From assembly GCA_039588295.1 (NCBI GenBank), contig JBDHAB010000001.1, positions 320,001 through 384,000 of the forward strand: a stretch of 64,000 bases of DNA, given 5' to 3'. The notes beneath the pieces were generated by a model. The model worked only from the letters and a program-made list of their open reading frames with translations. It made no database searches and was not told where the DNA came from. A program made the translations under genes and the position numbers. The DNA comes from Gemmatimonadota bacterium. GTDB lineage: Bacteria; Gemmatimonadota; Gemmatimonadetes; Gemmatimonadales; GWC2-71-9. Below, one piece after another: positions 3,679-18,611 of this stretch; within the stretch, counting starts at the first letter, position 1; each line of letters starts with the position of its first letter.

Positions 3679-5487
3679 CTAGGGCGCCTGGTCGACGGGT
3701 TTCACCATGGAGATCAGCGTGAAGCCTGGCTTGGGGCTCGGAGGATTGAGTACTGTAAACGGCACGACCTCACCCGATTCCTTGATGGCGAACATCGGGA
3801 CCGCGGTTTCGCCGTAGCGATGCTTGAAGGCGTCGAAATCGAACTCGGCGGTCAGTAAATTCCGCTTGATTACTGCTCCGGCCTGGAATCTCGTGCTCAG
3901 CACGCTGTGAGTGACACCGCGGCTGAAGAGGAAGCGACCACGAAGGTGCTGGGGGATGCCCCGTTGTCGCTGCTCGCGCTCCGTCGCGTGGGGCGGCAGT
4001 TGGTAAATGTGTGAGCGGTCAAACAGATCGCCGAAGTGCAGGCTGGAAAGCGCATTTACTTCGTCGTTGGGGGTGAGGGCGAGAAGACGGCCAACGCCGT
4101 CGAGCTCGAGCTCGATCTCATCCAGTGCACCCTCGGTCAAGACGTTGGTGTAGAACGCCCGAAGGCCCCGGCGACGGGCGGCAGTCACGTTGAGCCAGCT
4201 CGAGTCCGCGATGATGACCTTGATGTTGCGGTCTTTGAGCAGTGCTGCGACGTCCTGCACCCAGGGTGCCCCGCCGATCAGCAGCATCCCTTGGGGGTTC
4301 GGAGTGGCCACGCTGAGCCAGCGGGCGAGGAGTGGTGAGAAGATCCCGTACGCGGCGACCGTCCCCACGATCACGAGGAACATCAGCGGCACGAGCCGTT
4401 CGGCGCCCGCATAGCCGCTGTCCGCCAGCTCGAGTGCGAAGAGTGAGGCAACGGCGGCTGCCACGATACCCCGTGGGGCTATTCCTGCGAGAAACAGCCG
4501 TTCATTCCAATCGAGCTTCGTTCGGGCGGTCGCGACACCAACGGAGACCGGGCGGACCACGAAGATGAGTACCGCAAGAAAGGCGAGGCTTCCGGCGCTC
4601 CAGTAGTCAGGGTCGCGCAGCGGGAGGCGCGCGGCGAGCACGATGAACAACGCCGAGATGAGCAGCACCCGGAGGTTCTCCTTGAACTCCACGATGTGCC
4701 GTATGCTCACCCATTTCTGGCTGGCCAGCGCCGCTCCCATCACGGTCACGGCGAGCAGACCGGACTCCGCTTGGATCTGGTTTGAGAGCGCGAAGGCCAG
4801 GATCACCAATCCAACGGCCATCGGGTTCTGCAGGTAATCGGGAATCCAATAGCGCTTGAGCAGCATCACGATGGACCCGGCGGCGAGGAGGCCGAGCCCA
4901 CCCCCCACGAAGGTTGCTTTGAGCATGCCCATGAGTGCGACCGTGAGCCCCGCCTCGAATCCACCGGCCACGATGGCCTCGAACACGAGCACGGCCAGGA
5001 TGGCTCCGATGGGATCGTTGACGATGCCTTCCCACTTGACCGCCGATCCGACACGGGCATTGGGTCGAATGTGTCGCAGAAGTGGCACGATCACTGTGGG
5101 GCCGGTTACGACGAGGATGGCGCCGAACAGGACTGAAAGGGCGAGGTCGAGATCGAGGAGCACGTAGGCGAAGGTCGTGGTGAGCAGCCAGGTTACGACG
5201 ACGCCAACCGTCATCAGGTTCCGTACGACGCGCCCGATGACCCGCAGCTCGGCGATGTCGAGCGAGAGCCCCCCCTCGAACAAGATGATTGCGACCGACA
5301 ACGAGACGATCGGAAACAGCAAGTCTCCGAGCAGCGCATCTGGCTCGAGAAACCCGACGACCGGACCTGCCAAGAACCCGACGAGAAGCAGGAACAAGAT
5401 CGAGGGAAGCTTGATGCGCCACGAGAGCCATTGAGCGGCAATCCCTAGGACAATGATGGATGCGAGTCCGACCAGAATGTGTTCCAA
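3679..5487 (-). CDS. CPA1/NhaP-type cation:proton antiporter with C-terminal RCK/TrkA-N-like domain
   Basis: About 12 TM helices, ILFEGGL, TGPTVI, WEGIVNDP, APRGIVAAA. TTG start preceded by GAGGT. Confidence 0.9.
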   Translation of the reverse strand: MEHILVGLASIIVLGIAAQWLSWRIKLPSILFLLLVGFLAGPVVGFLEPDALLGDLLFPIVSLSVAIILFEGGLSLDIAELRVIGRVVRNLMTVGVVVTWLLTTTFAYVLLDLDLALSVLFGAILVVTGPTVIVPLLRHIRPNARVGSAVKWEGIVNDPIGAILAVLVFEAIVAGGFEAGLTVALMGMLKATFVGGGLGLLAAGSIVMLLKRYWIPDYLQNPMAVGLVILAFALSNQIQAESGLLAVTVMGAALASQKWVSIRHIVEFKENLRVLLISALFIVLAARLPLRDPDYWSAGSLAFLAVLIFVVRPVSVGVATARTKLDWNERLFLAGIAPRGIVAAAVASLFALELADSGYAGAERLVPLMFLVIVGTVAAYGIFSPLLARWLSVATPNPQGMLLIGGAPWVQDVAALLKDRNIKVIIADSSWLNVTAARRRGLRAFYTNVLTEGALDEIELELDGVGRLLALTPNDEVNALSSLHFGDLFDRSHIYQLPPHATEREQRQRGIPQHLRGRFLFSRGVTHSVLSTRFQAGAVIKRNLLTAEFDFDAFKHRYGETAVPMFAIKESGEVVPFTVLNPPSPKPGFTLISMVKPVDQAP

Positions 5488-5706
5488 GGTCTACCTCAGT
5501 GATCACGCAGGCGCGAACGGCGACTCGTCGCCGACGGCGCGACACGATTGACTCAGCGAGCTGGCTTCGACGCTCAGGAATCCGATTCCAGAGAGTACGA
5601 CGGCAGGATCACTCGGGGAGTGCCCAGCGGGACCCGAGGTAGCTGCCCCGGCCTTGAGGCCCGCGCGATGCTCCCGTCGGAGGTTGACGGCAATGGTCGC
5701 CATGTT

Positions 5707-6174
5707 TCAGAACGCGGGTCCGGCGCCCACGTCTCCTCCCGCGACCGCCACGATGCCATCACAGCGGGCACACACGATCCCCCGCTCATCTTTGAGCTCG
5801 GCTGCGGAGAACACGAGGGTCTTGCCGGTCCGCACCGGCCAGCCTAGGACCTCGAACCATTGGCCTTCGACCGGTCGCAGAAACTGAATGCTCAGTTGTG
5901 CGACCCCCGCTCGGCGGCCGGCGGTCTGGAGATAGCCCGACAGGCCGATGACGAGATCGAAGAGCCCGGCGATTACCGCCCCGTTGACCGCCTCGGTGCC
6001 CAACCCGCCGCGGTGTTCCGGCTGAATCGGATCGACCATGGTCCGAACCACGCCTGGGTTGGAGAGATCCAGCTGCGCACCCATGTGCCGCATACCCGGG
6101 TGCTCGTTCCACTCGGCCTGGAATGCCTCGAGCCGCTCCGCGTCCAGTTTTGGCAGTATGCGGGGTGTCGACAT
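5707..6174 (-). CDS. PaaI-family hotdog thioesterase
   Basis: NGAVIAGLFD, LSIQFLRP and RTGKTLVF patterns; ATG 6174 lies downstream of the SDR stop. Confidence 0.8.
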   Translation of the reverse strand: MSTPRILPKLDAERLEAFQAEWNEHPGMRHMGAQLDLSNPGVVRTMVDPIQPEHRGGLGTEAVNGAVIAGLFDLVIGLSGYLQTAGRRAGVAQLSIQFLRPVEGQWFEVLGWPVRTGKTLVFSAAELKDERGIVCARCDGIVAVAGGDVGAGPAF

Positions 6175-6191
6175 GTGCGCTCGTCCGGTGA

Positions 6192-7001
6192 CTACGTGTT
6201 GGCCAGTGAACTGCCCCCGTCCACCACCATAATGGCGCCGGTGATCCATGAACCGGCGGGGCTACTCAGGTACACTACCAAGTTGCCGATGTCTTCGGGG
6301 GTTCCCCAACGGCCGAGGGGGATTCTTCTCCGCATCAACTCGTCGATCGCCTGCGTGTCTTGGCCGCCGACGGCGAATGCCTGCTGCGCACCTTCCGTCG
6401 GAACCGGGCCCGGTGCGATGGCGTTCACGGTGATGTTGGCCGGGGCCCACTCGAGCGCCAGCGTTCGCGTAAGAGCGTCCACGCCGGCCTTCGCGGCCGT
6501 CGCGTGCGCCATCTGCGGCCAGCCGCGATAATGCAACGTCATCGAGATCGATATGATGCGGCCGCCGCCCTGCTTCACCATGGTGGGGTAGACCGCCTGC
6601 GAGCAGAAGAACGTGCCGTATAGATCGGTCTCTACGACGGCACGCCAGCCATTCGGTGAGAGCTCTGCGGAGGGAGCGTAGAAGTTGCCGGCGGCATTAT
6701 TGACCAGGACATCGAGTCGCCCCAGTTGGTCAGCGGCACGAGACACCATGGTGTCTACGGATTCCGGATCTCGCACATTTACCGTGAAGGAATGAACTGC
6801 CGTTCCGAAAGCGCGGAGCCGCTGGACCGCCGGCACAAGATGCTCGGGCTTTCGGCTTGCGATCACCACCGCGGCACCGGCGCGTGCGAGACACTCGGCG
6901 ATGCCGAGACCGATACCGGTACCCCCTCCCGTCACGAGCGCCACACGGCCAGTCAGCATGTCGCTCGGAAAGACGGCTTCTGGTTCAGGACTCGTGCTCA
7001 T
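6192..7001 (-). CDS. SDR oxidoreductase, 2,4-dienoyl-CoA reductase-like
   Basis: TGGGTGIG, NNAAGNF, ELSPNGWRAVV, HATAAKAG, NAIAPGP. Confidence 0.85.
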   Translation of the reverse strand: MSTSPEPEAVFPSDMLTGRVALVTGGGTGIGLGIAECLARAGAAVVIASRKPEHLVPAVQRLRAFGTAVHSFTVNVRDPESVDTMVSRAADQLGRLDVLVNNAAGNFYAPSAELSPNGWRAVVETDLYGTFFCSQAVYPTMVKQGGGRIISISMTLHYRGWPQMAHATAAKAGVDALTRTLALEWAPANITVNAIAPGPVPTEGAQQAFAVGGQDTQAIDELMRRRIPLGRWGTPEDIGNLVVYLSSPAGSWITGAIMVVDGGSSLANT

Positions 7002-9701: not shown

Positions 9702-9998
9702 CGAAACCAAAAGTAATCCGGAACGCCTCGGCTTGAAGGAACGACGGGTGGAGGCGGGCGGTGCGCGGAGGAGTCGACGAGGCTCAAATCCAAGTGCGGC
9801 AGCGGGATAGCCCATCGCGATCGCCGATCCCGAGGTCTTCTGACATGCCAGCTGAGCCGGCACGGTTGGCCCGCCACTGGCTGCGGCAGCGGTCCATCCA
9901 CTACGAGCCGCAGAGACACCCGAAGGTGGGTCGGAACGGGGTTGCGGGTGGGGTTCTCCCGCGACATGTTCCGGGTCCCGCAAGAGGGAGGTGTGACC

Positions 9999-12098
9999 GT
10001 GAAGGTCTATACAGGAGATAAGATCCGAAACGTGGCGGTCGTCGGCCACGGCGCGAGCGGCAAAACCAGTCTAGTAGATGCGCTTGCGTTCGTGGCCGGC
10101 AGCAGTTCGCGACATGGGTCGGTACAGCAGGGAACCGCTCTCACCGATTACACCCCCGACGAAATCGAGCGACAGTACTCCATCAACCTCGCTCTCGCAT
10201 ACGCCGAGTGGAACGGCGTCAAGATCAATCTGATCGACACCCCTGGCTACCTCGACTTCATTGGCGATACGATGGCCGGCGTTTCGGCGTCGGACACGAC
10301 GCTCGTCGTGGTAAGCGCCACCGCCGGGGTCGAGGTGGGGACGGAGAAGGCTTGGGAGTACGCGTCGGAGCGTGGTGTGCCGCGGATGTTCTTCCTGTCC
10401 CTGTTGGACAAGGAGAACGCCAACTTCGAGAAGGTCTATCAGGATATCCGGGAGCATCTGACGCCGAAGGTGGTGCCCATTGAGATCCCGGTCGGGGAGG
10501 GCCCGAGCTTCCACGGGATCATCAATCTGTTTTCGAAGAAGTGCCACATGTACAAGAAGGGCACCAAGACCGGCGAGTACGACGAGGCCGAGATCCCCGA
10601 CGAGTATCAAGAGCGGTTCGCGAGGTACTCACAGGAGCTGATCGAGACGATCGCGACTACCGACGACACCCTGCTCGAGCGGTATCTGGGGGGTGAGGAG
10701 ATCAGCCGCGAAGAGGCGATCACGGCGATGAAGGTAGGCGTGGCTCGAGGTGAGATCTGCCCCCTGCTCTGCGGTTCGGCGCATCTCACCTATGGGACGC
10801 GAGCGCTACTCTCGAAACTGAGCGAGTTGGTGCCGGCACCCACGGAGCGTCCGGCGCCTGTTGCCGAAACTTGGGGCGACCCGACCCCGGTCGAACTCAA
10901 GGGGTCGGACGAAGCGCCCTTCGTCGCGCAGATCTTCAAGACCGTCTCCGAGCCGCACGTCGGTGACGTGACGTTCTTCCGCATCTACTCCGGCAGCGTG
11001 AGAAACGGCGCGGAGGTCTACAACGCACCGCGGTCGTCCGTGGAAAAACTCAACCACTTATCGACCGCCCAGGGGAAGGACCGCACCGAGGTCCCGATGC
11101 TGCATGTCGGCGACATCGGAGCCGTGGCAAAGCTGAAGGACACGCATACCAACGATACACTCTCCACCCAAGCGTGCCCGGTCGTCCTGCCGAAGATACC
11201 GTTCCCCGAGCCGCTCACGGTCCTCTCGGTCGAGGTCAAGCAGCGGGGCGAGGAGGACAAGCTCTCAACCGGGTTACAGAGGCTGCACGAGGAAGATCCC
11301 ACGTTCCATCATGAGTACAATGCCGAACTGCGCCAAACACTCCTCGGGGGCCGCGGTGAGCGGCATCTCGAGATCGTGATCGGTCGGCTGGAACGGAAGT
11401 TCGGTGTCCATGCGGAGCTTGGGCGTCCTCGGGTTGCGTATCGCGAGACGTTCAAGGGGAAGGCAGAGGGCCAAGGACGACACAGGAAGCAGACCGGCGG
11501 TCGCGGGCAGTTTGGAGACTGCTGGATCCGTATCCAGAGCCTGCCTCGTGGGAGTGGATACGAGTTCGTGGATCGGATCAAGGGTGGGGTGATTCCGAGC
11601 AAGTACATCCCAGCCGTGGACAAGGGTATCCGGGAAGCGGCGGCGCGCGGCGTCACCGCCGGATATCCGGTCGTCGATTTCAAGGTGGAGTGCTATGACG
11701 GGTCGTACCACGACGTCGACAGCAGCGAGCAAGCGTTCAAGATGGCCGGCATTCTGGCGTTCCGAAATGTCGCGACGAAAGCCAAGCCGATCCTCTTGGA
11801 GCCGATTCTCGAGGTCGACATCTGGACCCCGGAAGACAACCTTGGTGAGGTGATGGGCGATCTTTCCGCCCATCGCGGTCAGATTTTGGGTAGTGAGCCC
11901 GACGGTCGACTAACCAAGGTGCGGGCGCAGGTGCCGGAGGCGGAGATGTATCGCTACTCGACGCAGCTCCACTCGATGACCCATGGGCGGGGGACCTTCC
12001 GGTGGGCCTTTTCGAGCTATCAGCAGGTGCCACCGGAAATCGCGGAGAAGCTTCGCGAGGAACGAGCGAAAGAGCTCGAAAAGGAGAACGCGCGGTAG
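9999..12098 (+). CDS. fusA: Elongation factor G paralogue (EF-G II type)
   Basis: Full five-domain EF-G layout (AYRET, KQTGGRGQFG, DGSYHDVDSS) with divergent G motifs. GGGAGG SD before GTG 9999; not in an rpsL-rpsG context. Confidence 0.9.
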   Translation: MKVYTGDKIRNVAVVGHGASGKTSLVDALAFVAGSSSRHGSVQQGTALTDYTPDEIERQYSINLALAYAEWNGVKINLIDTPGYLDFIGDTMAGVSASDTTLVVVSATAGVEVGTEKAWEYASERGVPRMFFLSLLDKENANFEKVYQDIREHLTPKVVPIEIPVGEGPSFHGIINLFSKKCHMYKKGTKTGEYDEAEIPDEYQERFARYSQELIETIATTDDTLLERYLGGEEISREEAITAMKVGVARGEICPLLCGSAHLTYGTRALLSKLSELVPAPTERPAPVAETWGDPTPVELKGSDEAPFVAQIFKTVSEPHVGDVTFFRIYSGSVRNGAEVYNAPRSSVEKLNHLSTAQGKDRTEVPMLHVGDIGAVAKLKDTHTNDTLSTQACPVVLPKIPFPEPLTVLSVEVKQRGEEDKLSTGLQRLHEEDPTFHHEYNAELRQTLLGGRGERHLEIVIGRLERKFGVHAELGRPRVAYRETFKGKAEGQGRHRKQTGGRGQFGDCWIRIQSLPRGSGYEFVDRIKGGVIPSKYIPAVDKGIREAAARGVTAGYPVVDFKVECYDGSYHDVDSSEQAFKMAGILAFRNVATKAKPILLEPILEVDIWTPEDNLGEVMGDLSAHRGQILGSEPDGRLTKVRAQVPEAEMYRYSTQLHSMTHGRGTFRWAFSSYQQVPPEIAEKLREERAKELEKENAR

Positions 12099-12130: not shown

Positions 12131-13327
12131 CTAGGTCCGCTTCTTCTTCGTCTTGCGCCCGCCGTTTCGCAAAGAGGGACGAGCGCTCTTCGCACTCACG
12201 GTTCGGCCTTGATCGAACAGCGGGAGCACCGCGTACTCGGGTTCGGCGATTCCCGCTGCCACCATCACCTCCTGCGGCGTCTGTGGGTAGACGAATCGGC
12301 CACCGCGGTAGTTGCGGAGCACGACCTCCGTGTCCGAGATGCTTTCGACGTACTCCGGCAGCAGGGGGATCTTGCCGCCACCGCCCGGTGCATCAATCAC
12401 GAAGTGCGGTACTGCGAGGCCGCTCGTCCATCCGCGTAGCTCGCCCAGGATCTCCAGGCCCTTCTCTACGGTCGCCTTGAAGTGCTCAATCCCGGCGACA
12501 TTGTCGCACATGAAGATGTAGTAGGGGCGAACCCGTGCAACGAGCAGCCCCTGCAAGAGTTCCTTCATCACTGTGGTGTCGTCGTTCACGCCCTTCAGAA
12601 GGACAGTCTGACAACCCAGCGGAATCCCGGCATCGGCGAGCATTCCGAGTCGCTTGACCGCTTCGGGGGTGAGTTCCGCTGGATGATTGAAGTGCGTATT
12701 GATGTAGAGCGGGTGATGTTTCTTCAGCACCTTGCACAGCTCTGGAGTGATCCGTTCCGGCAGGTGGCACGGAATGCGACTTCCAATCCGGATGATGTCC
12801 AGGTGTTTGATTTTCCGCAGTCGCCCGAGGATCAAATCGAGGCGACGATCGGAGAGCAAGAGGGGATCGCCGCCCGACAGGATCACATCACGGATTTCCC
12901 GGTGCTCCTCCAGGTATTGGAACCCACTCTCCAACTGAGCGATAGGGATCTTTTCGGGATCTCCGACCTTGCGCCGGCGTGTGCAGAAGCGGCAGTAGGC
13001 GGCGCAGACGGGGCTCACGAGGAAGAGCGCACGGTCGGGATACCGGTGCGTGATGTTGGGAACCGGGCTGTCACCTTCTTCGTTGAGGCTGTCAAGCACG
13101 CCGTCGACGACCTCTAGCTCTTGGAGGTCGGGAATGTACTGCCTCCAGATCGGGTCGTCGGGTTCCTGGATCAGGTCGACCATGGCCGGGGAAATACGGA
13201 ATTCGAAGGTGTCTGCGGCCTCCTGCAGTCGATCGAGCTCCGGGAAGTGCTCGGCACCGAACTTGTCAACAAGCTGTTGCAGAGTTCGGATGCTGCGCTT
13301 GTGGAGGAGCTTCTGCCAATCAGCCAT
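12131..13327 (-). CDS. kamA: KamA-family radical SAM lysine 2,3-aminomutase
   Basis: THRYPDR, CAAYCRFCTRRR, LSGGDPL, THFNHP, QTVLLKGVND, DAPGGGGKIP (PLP lysine). Confidence 0.9.
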   Translation of the reverse strand: MADWQKLLHKRSIRTLQQLVDKFGAEHFPELDRLQEAADTFEFRISPAMVDLIQEPDDPIWRQYIPDLQELEVVDGVLDSLNEEGDSPVPNITHRYPDRALFLVSPVCAAYCRFCTRRRKVGDPEKIPIAQLESGFQYLEEHREIRDVILSGGDPLLLSDRRLDLILGRLRKIKHLDIIRIGSRIPCHLPERITPELCKVLKKHHPLYINTHFNHPAELTPEAVKRLGMLADAGIPLGCQTVLLKGVNDDTTVMKELLQGLLVARVRPYYIFMCDNVAGIEHFKATVEKGLEILGELRGWTSGLAVPHFVIDAPGGGGKIPLLPEYVESISDTEVVLRNYRGGRFVYPQTPQEVMVAAGIAEPEYAVLPLFDQGRTVSAKSARPSLRNGGRKTKKKRT

Positions 13328-13841
13328 AGTGTGCCGTCTCGGTTGCGGGAGGACTGAGATGCTTGGTGTAGACGATCAGATCGTCACCCGGCGCGTAGTA
13401 TCCGGAAATCCGCGCCGCCTGATCGTAGCTGAGTGACTCGTAGAACCGACGGGTTGGCGTGTAGTCGTCACGCGACGATGTCTGAACCACGATGAGTTGC
13501 CCGTTCCGCTCCTGCATGCTCTCTTCCGCAGCGGCCATGAGATGTCGGCCTACGCCCTGCCGGTGCGCGGAAGGATCGACGATAATCCAGTACAGGTCCC
13601 ACGTGGCCGTCGTGCACGGCGTCGGGCCGTACAACGTGAATCCGATTAGTGTCTCATCGTCGAATGCGCAGAGCCCGTGGTAGTCGCCCCCTGGTTGGGC
13701 AACGGCTTCATCGAAGACCTCCAAGGCCACGGTCACCTCGTCAGATCGGAACACACCGGTCGCCTCGACCATCTCGGCAACACGGTCGTGGTCCGACGCA
13801 CGCGGCGGGCCGAGCGTGACCAGGGTGTTCGACATACTCAT
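13320..13841 (-). CDS. GNAT N-acetyltransferase
   Basis: WDLYWIIV, HRQGVGRHL acetyl-CoA motif, FYESLSY. ATGA overlap with upstream ATP-grasp gene. Confidence 0.85.
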   Translation of the reverse strand: MSMSNTLVTLGPPRASDHDRVAEMVEATGVFRSDEVTVALEVFDEAVAQPGGDYHGLCAFDDETLIGFTLYGPTPCTTATWDLYWIIVDPSAHRQGVGRHLMAAAEESMQERNGQLIVVQTSSRDDYTPTRRFYESLSYDQAARISGYYAPGDDLIVYTKHLSPPATETAHYG

Positions 13842-14863
13842 GCGACCGAGGAGGGTTCGGGGGTCGCATCCCACTGCCCGGCGGGCGGCCTCGTACCGGG
13901 TGGCAGTGTTCTCGGATAGTCGACCGCCGCCTGCATGACCTGAAGCACCAGATGCTCGTAGGACCAGCCGAACGCCCCGGCCATGCGAGCGAGTCCCGCG
14001 TCGGTCGACAAGTCAGGGTTGGGGTTGACCTCGAGCACCCACGGCTGGCCGTCGGCATCGACCCTGACATCCACGCGGCCGTACCCCCGCCCTTCCACCG
14101 CGCGCCACGCGTGGGTGGCGACGTCGATCACGCGTGCGGCCAGATCACCATCCAGGGCGGCCGGGCACACCGGCTCGGTCCCGACGTACTCCGGACTCTC
14201 ATCGTGCCACTTCGCGGCGAATGACACGATCGGCCAGGCGTCCTCCGGCATACGCGAGAAGTCGATCTCGGAGAGTGGCAGCGTGTACTCGCCCACGAAC
14301 CCCACGGCGATTTCTCGGCCTGCGACGTATTGCTGGACCAGGACCGGCCCGTGGAGTTCCCGGACCTGCCCCACCCGCTGCCGGAGGGCGTCTTCAGTGG
14401 TCACGACCGAACCTTGGTCGATTCCAATACTGGCGTCCTCGGCTGCGGGCTTCACGATGGCGGGCAAGGCGACGGCCAACTTCGACCCATCTCGCGGCAC
14501 GAGCCAGCGAGGGACCGGGAGTCCCGCCGCTTGAAGCACTGCGTTCAACAGCGGCTTTCGATGGCAGACCGTCATCGTCCACGCCGAACACCCCGTGTAC
14601 GGGATTCCGGCAAGTTCGATTGCCGACGCGACCTTGTACTCCAACTGGCTGACACCCTCGATGCCTTCGCACAGGTTGAACACGAGATCGACGTCGCGCA
14701 CGGCGTCGAACCAGGCCAAGTCCGAGCACACCGCAACCCGCGTGACATCGTGGCCCGCCTGCCGCAGGACCTCGTGCACTCCGCGCACGGATTCCAGCAC
14801 CGCCTGAATGTCCTCGGGACTCCAGGTCTCAGCGCCGCCGTCGTACAACACCGCGACCTTCAG
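13838..14863 (-). CDS. D-Ala-D-Ala ligase-like ATP-grasp enzyme (second copy), probable CTG start
   Basis: VFNLCE, IVKPAAEDASIGI, YGRVDVR, LEVNPNPD. CTG at 14863 overlaps the upstream TGA with GGAG 7 nt before it; alternative GTG start at 14920. Confidence 0.85.
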   Translation of the reverse strand: MKVAVLYDGGAETWSPEDIQAVLESVRGVHEVLRQAGHDVTRVAVCSDLAWFDAVRDVDLVFNLCEGIEGVSQLEYKVASAIELAGIPYTGCSAWTMTVCHRKPLLNAVLQAAGLPVPRWLVPRDGSKLAVALPAIVKPAAEDASIGIDQGSVVTTEDALRQRVGQVRELHGPVLVQQYVAGREIAVGFVGEYTLPLSEIDFSRMPEDAWPIVSFAAKWHDESPEYVGTEPVCPAALDGDLAARVIDVATHAWRAVEGRGYGRVDVRVDADGQPWVLEVNPNPDLSTDAGLARMAGAFGWSYEHLVLQVMQAAVDYPRTLPPGTRPPAGQWDATPEPSSVA

Positions 14864-15942
14864 GGTGTCGCTCCCGCCGTCGGGCTCGGCATCAGCTCCC
14901 TCCGGGTGATGCGTCGCCACGCGATCCGCGTAGCGGTCTGGATCAGCTCGTCGTAGGTCATGCCGACGGCCGCCGCCGCCCGCGGGAAGCAGCTGTTGGC
15001 CATCGGATCCGGAATGATCCCCGGCAAGGGGTTGATTTCGAGGACGTGCGGCGTGCCGTTCCCGTCCAGCCGGAGATCGACCCGAGCCCAGTCACGGCAG
15101 CCGAGCGCGCCGTACGCCGCGAGCGCCGTGCGCCGAACCGCGGCGGCGGTCGCTTCGGTCACGTTCGCGGGACACTCCAGAATGTCGAGTTCGTTGTCGG
15201 GCACGTCCCACTTCCACTTGGCCTCATAGCCCATGATGGGCAATGCGCCGTCCGGGAGTTCGTCGAACCGATATCGGATAATCGGGAGCGCCGCGGCATC
15301 GTCACCGTTGCCGAGGACTGCCACCGTGAACTCCTCGCCCGGCAAGTAGGCTTCGGCGAGGACTGGCTGTCGATAGGTCGCCAGCAGCTGCCGTGCCCGA
15401 TCGATCGCCTCGTCGGGCGTTCGGACGTAGTTGGCCTCCGCTATTCCTTTAGAGGAGCCTTCCCAAGCCGGCTTGAGGAACACCGGATACGGATGGCCGT
15501 TCCGCAGGGCATGCAGGTCAGCCGGCGTCTCGATCCAGAGAAACGGTGGTGTGGGGACGCCGCGCTGCCGGAACACTTCCTTGGCTCGGACCTTGTGCAG
15601 TGCGATCCCGAGCGTGAGCGGGTCGCTCCCGAGGTAGGGGACTCCGACAAACTCGGCAATGGCGGGAACGTGCCCTTCTCGATTTGGACCAGCCAGGCCT
15701 TCAGCCATGTTGAAGAGGAAGTCGACCTTCGCCTCGCGGAGGCGCGTGGGAAAGTCGTCGACCGCCTCGAGGAGGGTTACCTCGCCAAACAGCTGCAACG
15801 CATTGCGGACGGCGTTGACGGTGTCTCGGTCATCCCACTCGACGTATGCGTCAGTAAGCGGCTCGAAGGTGGTGCGACGTTCGCCGTCGTGGTCCACGAC
15901 GACGTCGTCCGGCCGTTGATTGAAAGCGAGTCCGATGCGCAT
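14860..15942 (-). CDS. D-Ala-D-Ala ligase-like ATP-grasp enzyme (first copy)
   Basis: FNMAEG, FLKPAWEGSSKGI, WARVDLR, LEINPLPG; lacks the Ddl GGxSxEH motif. Confidence 0.9.
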   Translation of the reverse strand: MRIGLAFNQRPDDVVVDHDGERRTTFEPLTDAYVEWDDRDTVNAVRNALQLFGEVTLLEAVDDFPTRLREAKVDFLFNMAEGLAGPNREGHVPAIAEFVGVPYLGSDPLTLGIALHKVRAKEVFRQRGVPTPPFLWIETPADLHALRNGHPYPVFLKPAWEGSSKGIAEANYVRTPDEAIDRARQLLATYRQPVLAEAYLPGEEFTVAVLGNGDDAAALPIIRYRFDELPDGALPIMGYEAKWKWDVPDNELDILECPANVTEATAAAVRRTALAAYGALGCRDWARVDLRLDGNGTPHVLEINPLPGIIPDPMANSCFPRAAAAVGMTYDELIQTATRIAWRRITRRELMPSPTAGATP

Positions 15943-15959
15943 TCAACTCCAAGTACTTC

Positions 15960-16025
15960 ATTGTGTTGCGCAACACGATAAGGAATGCTTGGAAGATTCG
16001 CAATAGTTTTTTGGCGACTTTTTTT
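15960..16025 (-). promoter_or_regulatory. sigma70-type promoter with upstream A-tracts and palindromic operator for the ATP-grasp/GNAT/KamA operon
   Basis: Minus strand TTGCGA (16003-15998), 17 nt, TATCGT (15980-15975); two A6-7 tracts upstream; perfect palindrome GTGTTGCGCAACAC at 15963-15976. Confidence 0.7.
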
Positions 16026-16112: not shown

Positions 16113-16610
16113 CTACTCGAGTCGTGCGCGCCTGAGGTAGAGGCGGAAGCTGTACGCAAACCCGTGGCGCTTGTCAGCCGAGTGCCATGCGTCCTCTTCC
16201 AGGTGCCACTCCTCTGTGTCGAACTCGGGAAAGAAGGTGTCTCCGTCCACGACGGCGTGTACGACCGTGAGGTATATCCGGTGGGCACGGTCGAGTGCCG
16301 CGCGGTAGATCTCTTCCCCACCGACCACGAACACCTCCCGATCCCCTTCAGCACGGCCGAGAGCTTCATCGAGGCTGTGGACGATTTCGATGCCGGGCCT
16401 GCGGTACGTCTGGTCACGCGTGAGCACGATGTTCAGCCGTTGGGGGAGCGGCCTCTCCAAGGTCTCGAAGGTGCGGCGACCCATGATCACGGCGTGGCCG
16501 ATCGTGAGCGCCTTGAAGCGGCGCATATCTCTAGGCAGCCGCCACGGGAGCGCACCTTGGCGACCGATCACTCGGTTCTCCGCCATGGCGGCGATCAGCG
16601 AGATGATCAG
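16113..16610 (-). CDS. folA: Dihydrofolate reductase, probable CTG start
   Basis: (L)[51 protein letters not shown] 16610 overlaps the thyA TGA. Confidence 0.95.
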
Positions 16611-17401
16611 ACGGCCACCGGAGCTGCGATCCGTGGATGGGGGTCGTAGCCTTCGAGTGTGAAGTCCCGATAGGCGAAATCGAACAGAGACCCGATCTCG
16701 GGGTTGAGCTTCATTCGGGGGAGGTCGCGCGGCTCTCGGCCCAGCTGGAGGCGCGCCTGCGCGAGGTGGTTGGTGTACAAATGGGCGTCTCCCAAGGTGA
16801 GAACGAACTCACCTGAGTGGAGTCCGCAGACCTGTGCCACCATCAGCGTGAGGAGGGCATAGGACGCAATGTTGAACGGCACGCCGAGGAAGACATCAGC
16901 ACTTCGTTGGTAGAGTTGACATGAGAGCCGGCCGTCCGCGACGTAGAACTGAAACAGCACGTGGCACGGCGGGAGGGCCATCGCCGGTAACTCGGCGACA
17001 TTCCAGGCGCTGACCATGAGCCGCCTCGAATCAGGGTCCGTGCGTATCGACTCGATGACCCGTGCCAGCTGATCCACTCGCTTACCATTCGGCGTGGGCC
17101 ACGACCGCCACTGCGCGCCGTAGATGGGTCCGAGGTCCCCGTTCTGGTCGGCCCACTCGTCCCAGATGGTCACACCGTGGTCACGCAGGTAGCGCACATT
17201 GGTGTCGCCGTGGATGAACCAGAGCAGCTCATGAATGATGGATTTGAGATGGACCTTCTTCGTGGTGACCAGCGGGAACCCGGCCGCCAAGTCGAACCGC
17301 ATCTGATACCCGAAGATGCTGAGGGTACCCGTACCCGTGCGGTCCTGTTTCGGACGGCCATGCTCGAGAAGGTGCTCTAACAGATCGAGATACTGTCTCA
17401 T
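16607..17401 (-). CDS. thyA: Thymidylate synthase
   Basis: [45 protein letters not shown]. Confidence 0.97.
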
Positions 17402-17525
17402 TGCGAAGCGAGGAAGCCCGGTTGCGAAGGAGGGCCGTTGGCGGTCGAGATGCTCACCCAAGGGAATTAGTGCATGGGCTGGTGCCTGGCAACTCCCGTT
17501 CGCCGGTTGCGGGCCTCCCGTGGGT

Positions 17526-18611
17526 TCACATGCTGACCGGTGTCGGCGATTCGAGGGCCGGCTTGGACCACTGGCCTCCGGCCAGCCGCCGGAAGTACCA
17601 CCGGACCAGCTGATTGCTCGGTGCCACGAGCCGTGTGGTGAGGAGCGTCCGTGCGACTTCCCCCCGAGTGATCTTGACCTTGTGTGTCGGGTCGAGCAGG
17701 CGGTCGTCTCGCTCGGCTAGCCGGAGGGTTCGTGCGGCGAAGTAGAGTGAGGTCAAGCAGAACAGCCGCACTCGGTACTGGGAATGTCCCAACGTCGTTG
17801 AGTATTCGAGCGCGTCCAGCAGGTAACCCTTGGCCTTCTCGATCAACAGGTGCATGACCTGCCGTGCAGACTCGTGGTGCCGAGCGTCGTGGAGGGTCTC
17901 GGGTGTCACGCCGGCCAGTTGACAGAGTTCCTGCGGCACGAAGCTCCACCCCCGGCTCCGATCGTCCGCGACGTCCTTGATGATGTTCGTGAGTTGAAGC
18001 CCCAACCCGAAGCTCGTCGCCAGCGATTTGAGCTTGACGTGCCGTGCCCGATTGCCGGCTCCGGCGTGCAAGTGGAACAACTCGGTCAACAGGTGTCCCA
18101 CGGTGCCCGCCACGAAGTAGCAATAGCGATCGAGTTCCGCGACGGTCGCAAGTGCCTCGAGGTGCTCGCCGTCCGACGCCTTTGTGCGGAGAGCGAACTC
18201 GGCCATCCCCGCGCACATCTCTTGGACGTGTGGACGGACTGCGCCCTGCTGCGACTCCGAAAGGCGGCGGAACTCTCGCAGCACCGCGTCGGCGTCGCGT
18301 GCCAAGATCTCCTCATCGGTCGCCGCCTCCGCGAAGGCCGCACGGAGACGATCTGCTCGGAGATCACCCGGGCCGAGACAGCGGCTGAAGGCTTCCAGCA
18401 GGCGCGACTTCTCCAGGGGGTCGAGGCGGATGCTGTCCTCGATCGTATCAGCAACTCGACAAAGGAGGTACGCGACCAAGACAGCGTGGTCCAGCCGAGA
18501 CGGCAGCAAACGGATGCAGATCGCAAAGGTGCGGGAGACCTTTGGCAGCATGTCGATGCAGAAGGCGCGGTCGTCCGCCTCCGAGCCGAGCTGGCCGGGT
18601 GGCTGCATCAC
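17526..18611 (-). CDS. Squalene/phytoene synthase family (head-to-head isoprenyl synthase)
   Basis: [44 protein letters not shown]. Confidence 0.85.

Follow-up and report, generated by a model that had tools for sequence, protein, structure and literature searches.

What do two D-Ala-D-Ala ligase-like enzymes, an acetyltransferase and a lysine aminomutase make when they are encoded together in a single operon? The question is raised by a 64,000-nucleotide stretch of the genome of a Gemmatimonadota bacterium (GCA_039588295.1, contig JBDHAB010000001.1, positions 320,001 to 384,000), here called the window, which contains the following genes in order of transcription:

14860-15942, minus strand: ligase A, 360 aa, a Ddl-fold ATP-grasp protein (Pfam PF07478)
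13838-14863, minus strand: ligase B, 341 aa from a CTG start, a second Ddl-fold ATP-grasp protein
13320-13841, minus strand: GNAT acetyltransferase, 173 aa, of the PDB 2R7H (Dde_3044) family
12131-13327, minus strand: KamA-type radical SAM/PLP 2,3-aminomutase, 398 aa

On balance, and with some reserve, we favour a route independent of non-ribosomal peptide synthetases (NRPS), in which L-lysine would be turned into beta-lysine and then into a small N-acetylated beta-lysine amide, di- or tripeptide-like, that would serve as a protective solute or polyamine-like metabolite.

The four overlapping genes reported in the preliminary description are real. From A through B and GNAT to KamA the overlaps are 4, 4 and 8 nt, with CTGA at the A/B junction, ATGA at B/GNAT and the 8-nt ATGGCTGA at GNAT/KamA. 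The 3′ end of A reads xTGA in 31/31 related loci (16 CTGA, 8 GTGA, 4 ATGA and 3 TTGA) and the frame overlapping its stop opens B directly in 29 of them, and therefore the CTG start of B is supported. Close relatives are from Gemmatimonadota. A synteny search, proposed in that description as a check, found the set to be co-conserved: the order A-B-GNAT-KamA recurs in 30 of 31 Gemmatimonadota loci, the remaining locus being cut by a contig end. Across 201 genomes of the phylum, A and GNAT were each present in 98 (both in 97) and KamA in 87. Among metagenome loci, for which we took the best 80 of 590 found with a diverse alignment of A, all four genes were present in 26, and in 22 of the 36 that had at least 3.2 kb downstream; cluster names included Desulfuromonadales, Ignavibacteria, Omnitrophota and Pseudoclostridium thermosuccinogenes. 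Ligase A had no match on plasmids at E 1e-40, and viral contigs carried four A loci, one with KamA and none with B or GNAT. On two viral contigs (L034:6001-9879 and L035:703-4414) a lone A-type ligase is followed by genes of ~240 and ~680 aa without Pfam matches; the longer, which contains a motif resembling Walker A, is possibly a terminase.

KamA aligned to the clostridial lysine 2,3-aminomutase (LAM) 2A5H with an E-value of 5.8e-106, keeping CxxxCxxC, R134, D293, D330 and the PLP lysine K337. The lysine model ranked best among the equivalogs, yet the only cut-off passed was that of the subfamily model TIGR00238 (277 vs 199.2); scores were 437.6 for AblA (cut-off 525.4), 390.9 for the glutamate mutase TIGR04368 (650), 318.9 for arginine and 224.9 for EpmB (369). 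D293 is found in 62/62 operon-linked KamA homologues and D330 in 61/62, and the C-terminal Zn cysteines of clostridial LAM are absent from all 62. The motifs listed in the preliminary description are thus in place, and the comparative evidence supports its preference for lysine over glutamate, both aspartates being retained. Two more KamA-like genes occur in the source genome (G000:C30:15492-16679 and G000:C55:4894-7131); equivalents of D293 and D330 are absent from the C30 protein, and therefore it may use another substrate.

Further evidence on the aminomutase came from the same 201 genomes. A was accompanied by KamA in 84 and found without it in 14, and three KamA matches came without A (an ablA-ablB locus, an AblA-type gene and one at a contig start). 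On reading, 12 of the 14 KamA-less loci had A-B-GNAT intact. A second aminomutase of ~465 aa, 28% identical to KamA and here called K2, was present in 12/201 genomes: 11 of the 14 with A and no KamA, none of the 84 with both, and one of the 103 without A. In one genome (G143) K2 lies ~0.6 kb behind GNAT, in the place of KamA, and in another (G136) a frameshifted KamA is still in place. K2 retains equivalents of D293, D330 and K337 and shares 60-61% identity with Streptomyces proteins that carry a lysine 2,3-aminomutase annotation, one of which (61%) sits with a capreomycidine synthase in a cluster that we take to be streptothricin-like. Because of its residues and its replacement by another lysine aminomutase, KamA very probably converts L-lysine to beta-lysine. 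Moreover, since K2 replaces KamA, the operon is indicated to need beta-lysine and not a particular partner protein; beta-lysine supply looks like its conserved requirement. At L190-L197 K2 belongs to a conserved cluster that also includes a GntR regulator, a CoA-transferase and a class III aminotransferase, possibly a beta-lysine catabolic route in Gemmatimonadales.

Both ligases match PF07478, are 31% identical to each other and score below every Ddl and Van cut-off (A 160.8 and B 142.4 bits vs 243 for the NCBIfam Ddl model; 137 and 124 vs 245.65 for TIGR01205). The structure of A was predicted with a pLDDT of 94, and the fold matches listed were all Ddl or Van ligases at 20-27% identity. The motifs by which the two had been told apart beforehand are present as stated, EGSSKGI and EINPLPG in A and EDASIGI and EVNPNPD in B; A also has an acidic N-terminal DxxxEWD, and NxAEG where Ddl has LHG. 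Ddl residue columns were mapped onto 73 A and 47 B sequences through the separate canonical ddl of the source genome, which carries the Ddl motifs. Equivalents of K97, K144, E187, R255, D257, E270 and N272 are kept in at least 93% of both sets, and because these ATP, metal and acyl-phosphate residues are conserved, neither ligase looks inactive. The D-Ala pocket (E15, H63, S150 and Y216) is another matter. H63 is replaced by Glu in 70/73 A and 47/47 B sequences, and the Y216 column is mostly Trp in the two families and Trp in both window proteins. B has no stable E15 and shows S150A (43/47), G276D (45/47) and also G149D; A keeps S150, and its family adds a DxxxExD motif. The GGxSxEH D-Ala motif, said earlier to be lacking, is indeed absent from both, but A still has a Glu in the E15 column in 63 of 73 sequences. 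Taken together, the pockets appear more acidic, which would fit diamino substrates.

Relatives of these ligases occur in other settings. Two further B-like ligases are encoded in the source genome (G000:C2:130874-131920 and G000:C15:12372-13778), one of them adjoining an HHExxH-type peptidase-like gene, and at L032:1961-4010 a B-like ligase follows a Peptidase_Mx gene; a B-like ligase beside a peptidase-like gene looks like a separate system. Other relatives are fused to a methyltransferase, including in Methanolobus and Methanococcoides, or to an L-amino-acid-ligase-type domain, and A'-A tandems occur in Haliangiales (proteins P0009-P0028, P0029-P0050 and P0051-P0085 in all). Because of these arrangements, the ligase family as a whole would serve several pathways.

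Do the two ligases act together? A heterodimer had been suggested from the differences between them. Predicted as a complex, A:B scored 0.57 against 0.00 for the best of three controls, with at least 92% contact agreement between runs and a partner pLDDT of at least 86. The score rates as weak, because no more than 18/157 solved complexes fell at 0.60 or below, a range that also held the two mismatches that passed. The prediction therefore hints weakly at a Ddl-like heterodimer, and because A-B fusions exist, a partnership is plausible independently of it.

A profile search with GNAT matched PDB 2R7H (Dde_3044, Desulfovibrio) at E 1.2e-49, the next match being at 9e-8, and the folds agreed with template modelling (TM) scores of 0.85-0.87. 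By sequence and fold the protein is assigned to this uncharacterised family, and PMC4942678, the single relevant paper found for 2R7H, mentions it only as a structural homologue. An identity as AblB was considered and ruled out, as TIGR03827 matched none of the 36 family members scanned (0/36); nor was an AblB-family match found in the source genome, which is 96% complete. An ESM Atlas search with GNAT returned generic GNAT clusters only, one auto-named after D-Ala-D-Ala ligase. A close homologue is present in the cultured Desulfuromonas/Trichloromonas acetexigens, and others come from Aminicenantes, Lentisphaerae and Eisenbacteria. In four loci (L062, at 4932-6689, L077, L093 and L111) the operon has beside it a gene for a ~580-aa protein in which a GNAT-like N-terminus is joined to a histone-deacetylase domain; only distant homologues of this deacetylase were found in the source genome.

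How the four enzymes might be divided between steps can be read from gene fusions. More than ten proteins join A to B, four are KamA-A and one is A-KamA, and GNAT is fused to a PF07478 ligase in 13 proteins, with B-GNAT also in locus L101. This pattern suggests two sub-modules, KamA with A and B with GNAT. KamA would first turn L-lysine into beta-lysine. Ligase A, in some genomes a fusion partner of KamA or found alone with it, would next convert the carboxylate of beta-lysine to an acyl phosphate and form the first amide. GNAT would then acetylate a free amine. Lastly, ligase B, which in some genomes is fused to GNAT and is without the Ddl amine-binding features, would form a second amide, for which the acetylated intermediate is the probable donor; this is the weakest of the four steps. 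A precedent is N-acetylglutaminylglutamine amide (NAGGN), a GNAT-made acetylated dipeptide osmolyte in whose synthesis Ngg takes an acetylated donor (PMC8070244). What is made and in which order the enzymes act are both inferred. As to the role of the product, the GNAT-deacetylase fusion was the only suggestive one among the recurring accessory genes, the rest being local synteny. Together with an arginine decarboxylase directly upstream in L052 and an MscS-type membrane gene before A'-A-KamA in L091 and L099, it provides weak hints of amines or osmotic stress.

Several observations weigh against this pathway. The module is not fixed: 10 of the 80 metagenome loci have A and KamA but neither B nor GNAT close by, 6 of the 36 well-flanked ones have A alone, and in Omnitrophota the arrangement is A'-A-KamA; a KamA-A variant with B on the opposite strand was also seen. 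The lineages may therefore not all make the same compound. The regular neighbours include no transporter, peptidase or osmotic regulator. In two A-positive draft genomes (G033 and G127) a KamA-family gene was not found. The replacement by K2 is two to three events, not 11: in a ligase-A tree of 45 rows the nine K2 carriers included fall in one supported subclade and need two changes. The passing A:B prediction may reflect likeness to solved Ddl homodimers. Finally, the Ddl residue numbering is presumed here, and we likewise assume that D293 and D330 are lysine-type residues whose loss marks glutamate mutases.

Of the other explanations, the one that survives best, unlikely as we think it, is that the enzymes attach beta-lysine, with an acetyl cap, to a macromolecule, whether a lipid, an envelope polymer or some protein that is not EF-P. 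Protein modification by ATP-grasp ligases is known, as with RimK; RimI was the top-scoring named GNAT model in 36/36 members (though far below its cut-off), and neither an exporter nor a degrading enzyme is a regular neighbour. Moreover, the predicted promoter looks housekeeping-like. However, both ligases are Ddl-fold small-molecule types and not RimK-like, and a candidate target gene recurring beside the operon across lineages was not found. The promoter and a nearby element are as follows:

15975-16003, minus strand: candidate sigma70-like promoter, with -35 TTGCGA at 15998-16003, a 17-nt spacer and -10 TATCGT at 15975-15980
15963-15976, no strand: 14-nt palindrome over the -10 box, previously proposed as an operator

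A-tracts precede the predicted promoter up to ~16025. A consensus promoter and terminator scan gave no matches, the predicted promoter having 8/12 consensus matches and lying below threshold. Nevertheless, a dedicated promoter, as claimed in the preliminary description, is backed by the recurrence of TTGYRN-17-TANNNT, with exactly 17 nt in the spacer, in 28/31 related loci, the pattern having been fitted after viewing those loci. The operator fared worse. The palindrome is present but is perfect in just 4 of the 28 promoter-bearing relatives, with at most one broken pair in 6 of the 28, and therefore it is probably not an operator.

We consider it improbable that the ligases make a bioactive beta-lysyl pseudopeptide, an antimetabolite against which GNAT would give self-protection. 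Beta-lysine has a precedent here, since according to 10.1101/2025.07.31.667836 it is made by KamA and goes into negamycin. Streptomyces relatives of K2 lie in clusters with ATP-grasp and GNAT genes, and distant lone GNAT homologues (29-33%) are carried on plasmids without the operon. Set against these are the constant position of the operon on the chromosome, which in much of an order is behind thyA-folA or thyX, with neither a transporter nor a regulator, and the B-GNAT fusions, which favour a biosynthetic step over resistance. In the window, thyA and folA (16113-17461) lie upstream of the operon, with a squalene/phytoene synthase-like gene upstream of thyA (17526-18611); downstream, a convergent EF-G gene (9942-12098) ends 32 nt from the kamA stop, and the terminator scan called none. 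Compared over the window and L023, L024, L027, L029-L031 and L175-L185, what precedes the operon at this same site varies among Gemmatimonadota between thyA-folA and a gene for a ThyX-like flavin-dependent thymidylate synthase, the latter identity being one that we presume from its motifs.

Could KamA and GNAT simply make N-epsilon-acetyl-beta-lysine, as AblA/AblB do, with the ligases as passengers or acting elsewhere? According to PMC11337218, KamA with an acetyltransferase is the known osmolyte route and ynaI precedes kamA-ablB, much as the MscS-type gene precedes A'-A-KamA in L091 and L099. Yet GNAT is not AblB, it accompanies A and B even where KamA has been lost, its fusions are to B and those of KamA to A, and the phylum's true ablA-ablB loci stand apart (L188). 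This explanation is therefore very improbable. A shade less likely again is that the ligases make a beta-lysine dipeptide for an alternative peptidoglycan stem, the cell-wall variant of the preliminary description. It draws on the nearest solved folds, all Ddl and Van ligases, but is countered by the canonical ddl of the source genome, by the lack of recurring mur genes nearby and by two K-A loci (L067 and L089) with archaeal-looking flanks (FEN1, PF01984; candidate taxonomy). Least credible of all is beta-lysylation of EF-P by an EpmA-independent route: the EF-P of the source genome does have a PGKG loop, and no EpmA there passes the cut-off, but in 51 of ~200 EF-P genes, a selected rather than random sample that omits the second EF-P of some genomes, a PGNL loop without lysine was found in 12/12 operon-positive genomes chosen for low-scoring EF-P, and PGKG is present in many operon-negative genomes, which argues against this form of the protein modification considered earlier. 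In many Gemmatimonadales EF-P genes the loop is PGNL instead of PGKG (L155-L173 vs L124-L154), and some genomes have two EF-P genes.

Returning to the acetylated beta-lysine amide, a bolder version of that reading, which we regard as possible but hold only tentatively, is that a widespread new beta-lysine solute or polyamine-like compound is made by heterodimeric Ddl paralogues in many phyla and possibly archaea, that the GNAT-deacetylase beside some copies may reversibly remove the acetyl group, and that the ligases are a new class annotated as cell-wall Ddl. Databases do label the operon ligases D-Ala-D-Ala ligases. The operon is found in about half of the sampled Gemmatimonadota genomes and in several anaerobic lineages, recurring across several bacterial phyla. 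To our knowledge, few fates of beta-lysine are known, namely fermentation, the acetylated osmolyte, EF-P and actinomycete antibiotics, and the operon points to another, common one. Knowing what it makes would extend the metabolites of sediment and soil microbes, assign a function to the orphan structure 2R7H and yield ligases possibly active on beta-amino acids.

Literature searches gave no description of the four-gene operon among the listings and abstract openings covered; supplementary comparative-genomics or Desulfovibrio fitness tables could bear on this. The parts are of known families, and it is their combination and product that appear undescribed. With EpmA/EpmB the operon shares a short aminomutase that has no C-terminal Zn site and supplies beta-lysine, but KamA scored 224.9 bits against the EpmB cut-off of 369, an EpmA ligase over cut-off was not found, and the EF-P loop is untied to the operon. 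NAGGN synthesis by Ngg/AsnO, as described in PMC8070244, is likewise a non-ribosomal route to an acetylated dipeptide by acetylation and peptide-bond formation, and is an analogy for B and GNAT. However, it uses glutamine and an asparagine-synthase-like amidotransferase, with no aminomutase and no Ddl-type pair; an asparagine-synthase-like gene was found neither in the operon nor among its recurring neighbours. Ddl and Van ligases have a common fold with A and B (TM ~0.7 by query length) and the same ATP, Mg and acyl-phosphate residues. In contrast to them, A and B fall below the cut-offs, have Glu for H63, mostly Trp for Y216 and extra acidic motifs, with S150A and G276D in B, and form a paralogue pair instead of one homodimer, the canonical ddl being elsewhere in the genome. 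In AblA/AblB, known from methanogens, anaerobic methanotrophic archaea (ANME) and some bacteria, a lysine 2,3-aminomutase and an acetyltransferase are likewise encoded in one operon. Here, the acetyltransferase is a 173-aa 2R7H-family GNAT without an AblB match, KamA lies below the AblA cut-off (437.6 vs 525.4) and is without the C-terminal Zn cysteines, and there are also two ATP-grasp ligases, coupled or fused. Lastly, in actinomycete clusters of the negamycin/streptothricin type a lysine 2,3-aminomutase, to which K2 is 60-61% identical, feeds beta-lysine to amide-forming enzymes. Those clusters contain NRPS, N-N-bond or sugar enzymes, transporters and other ligase families, whereas the operon described here consists of four genes at a conserved chromosomal site.

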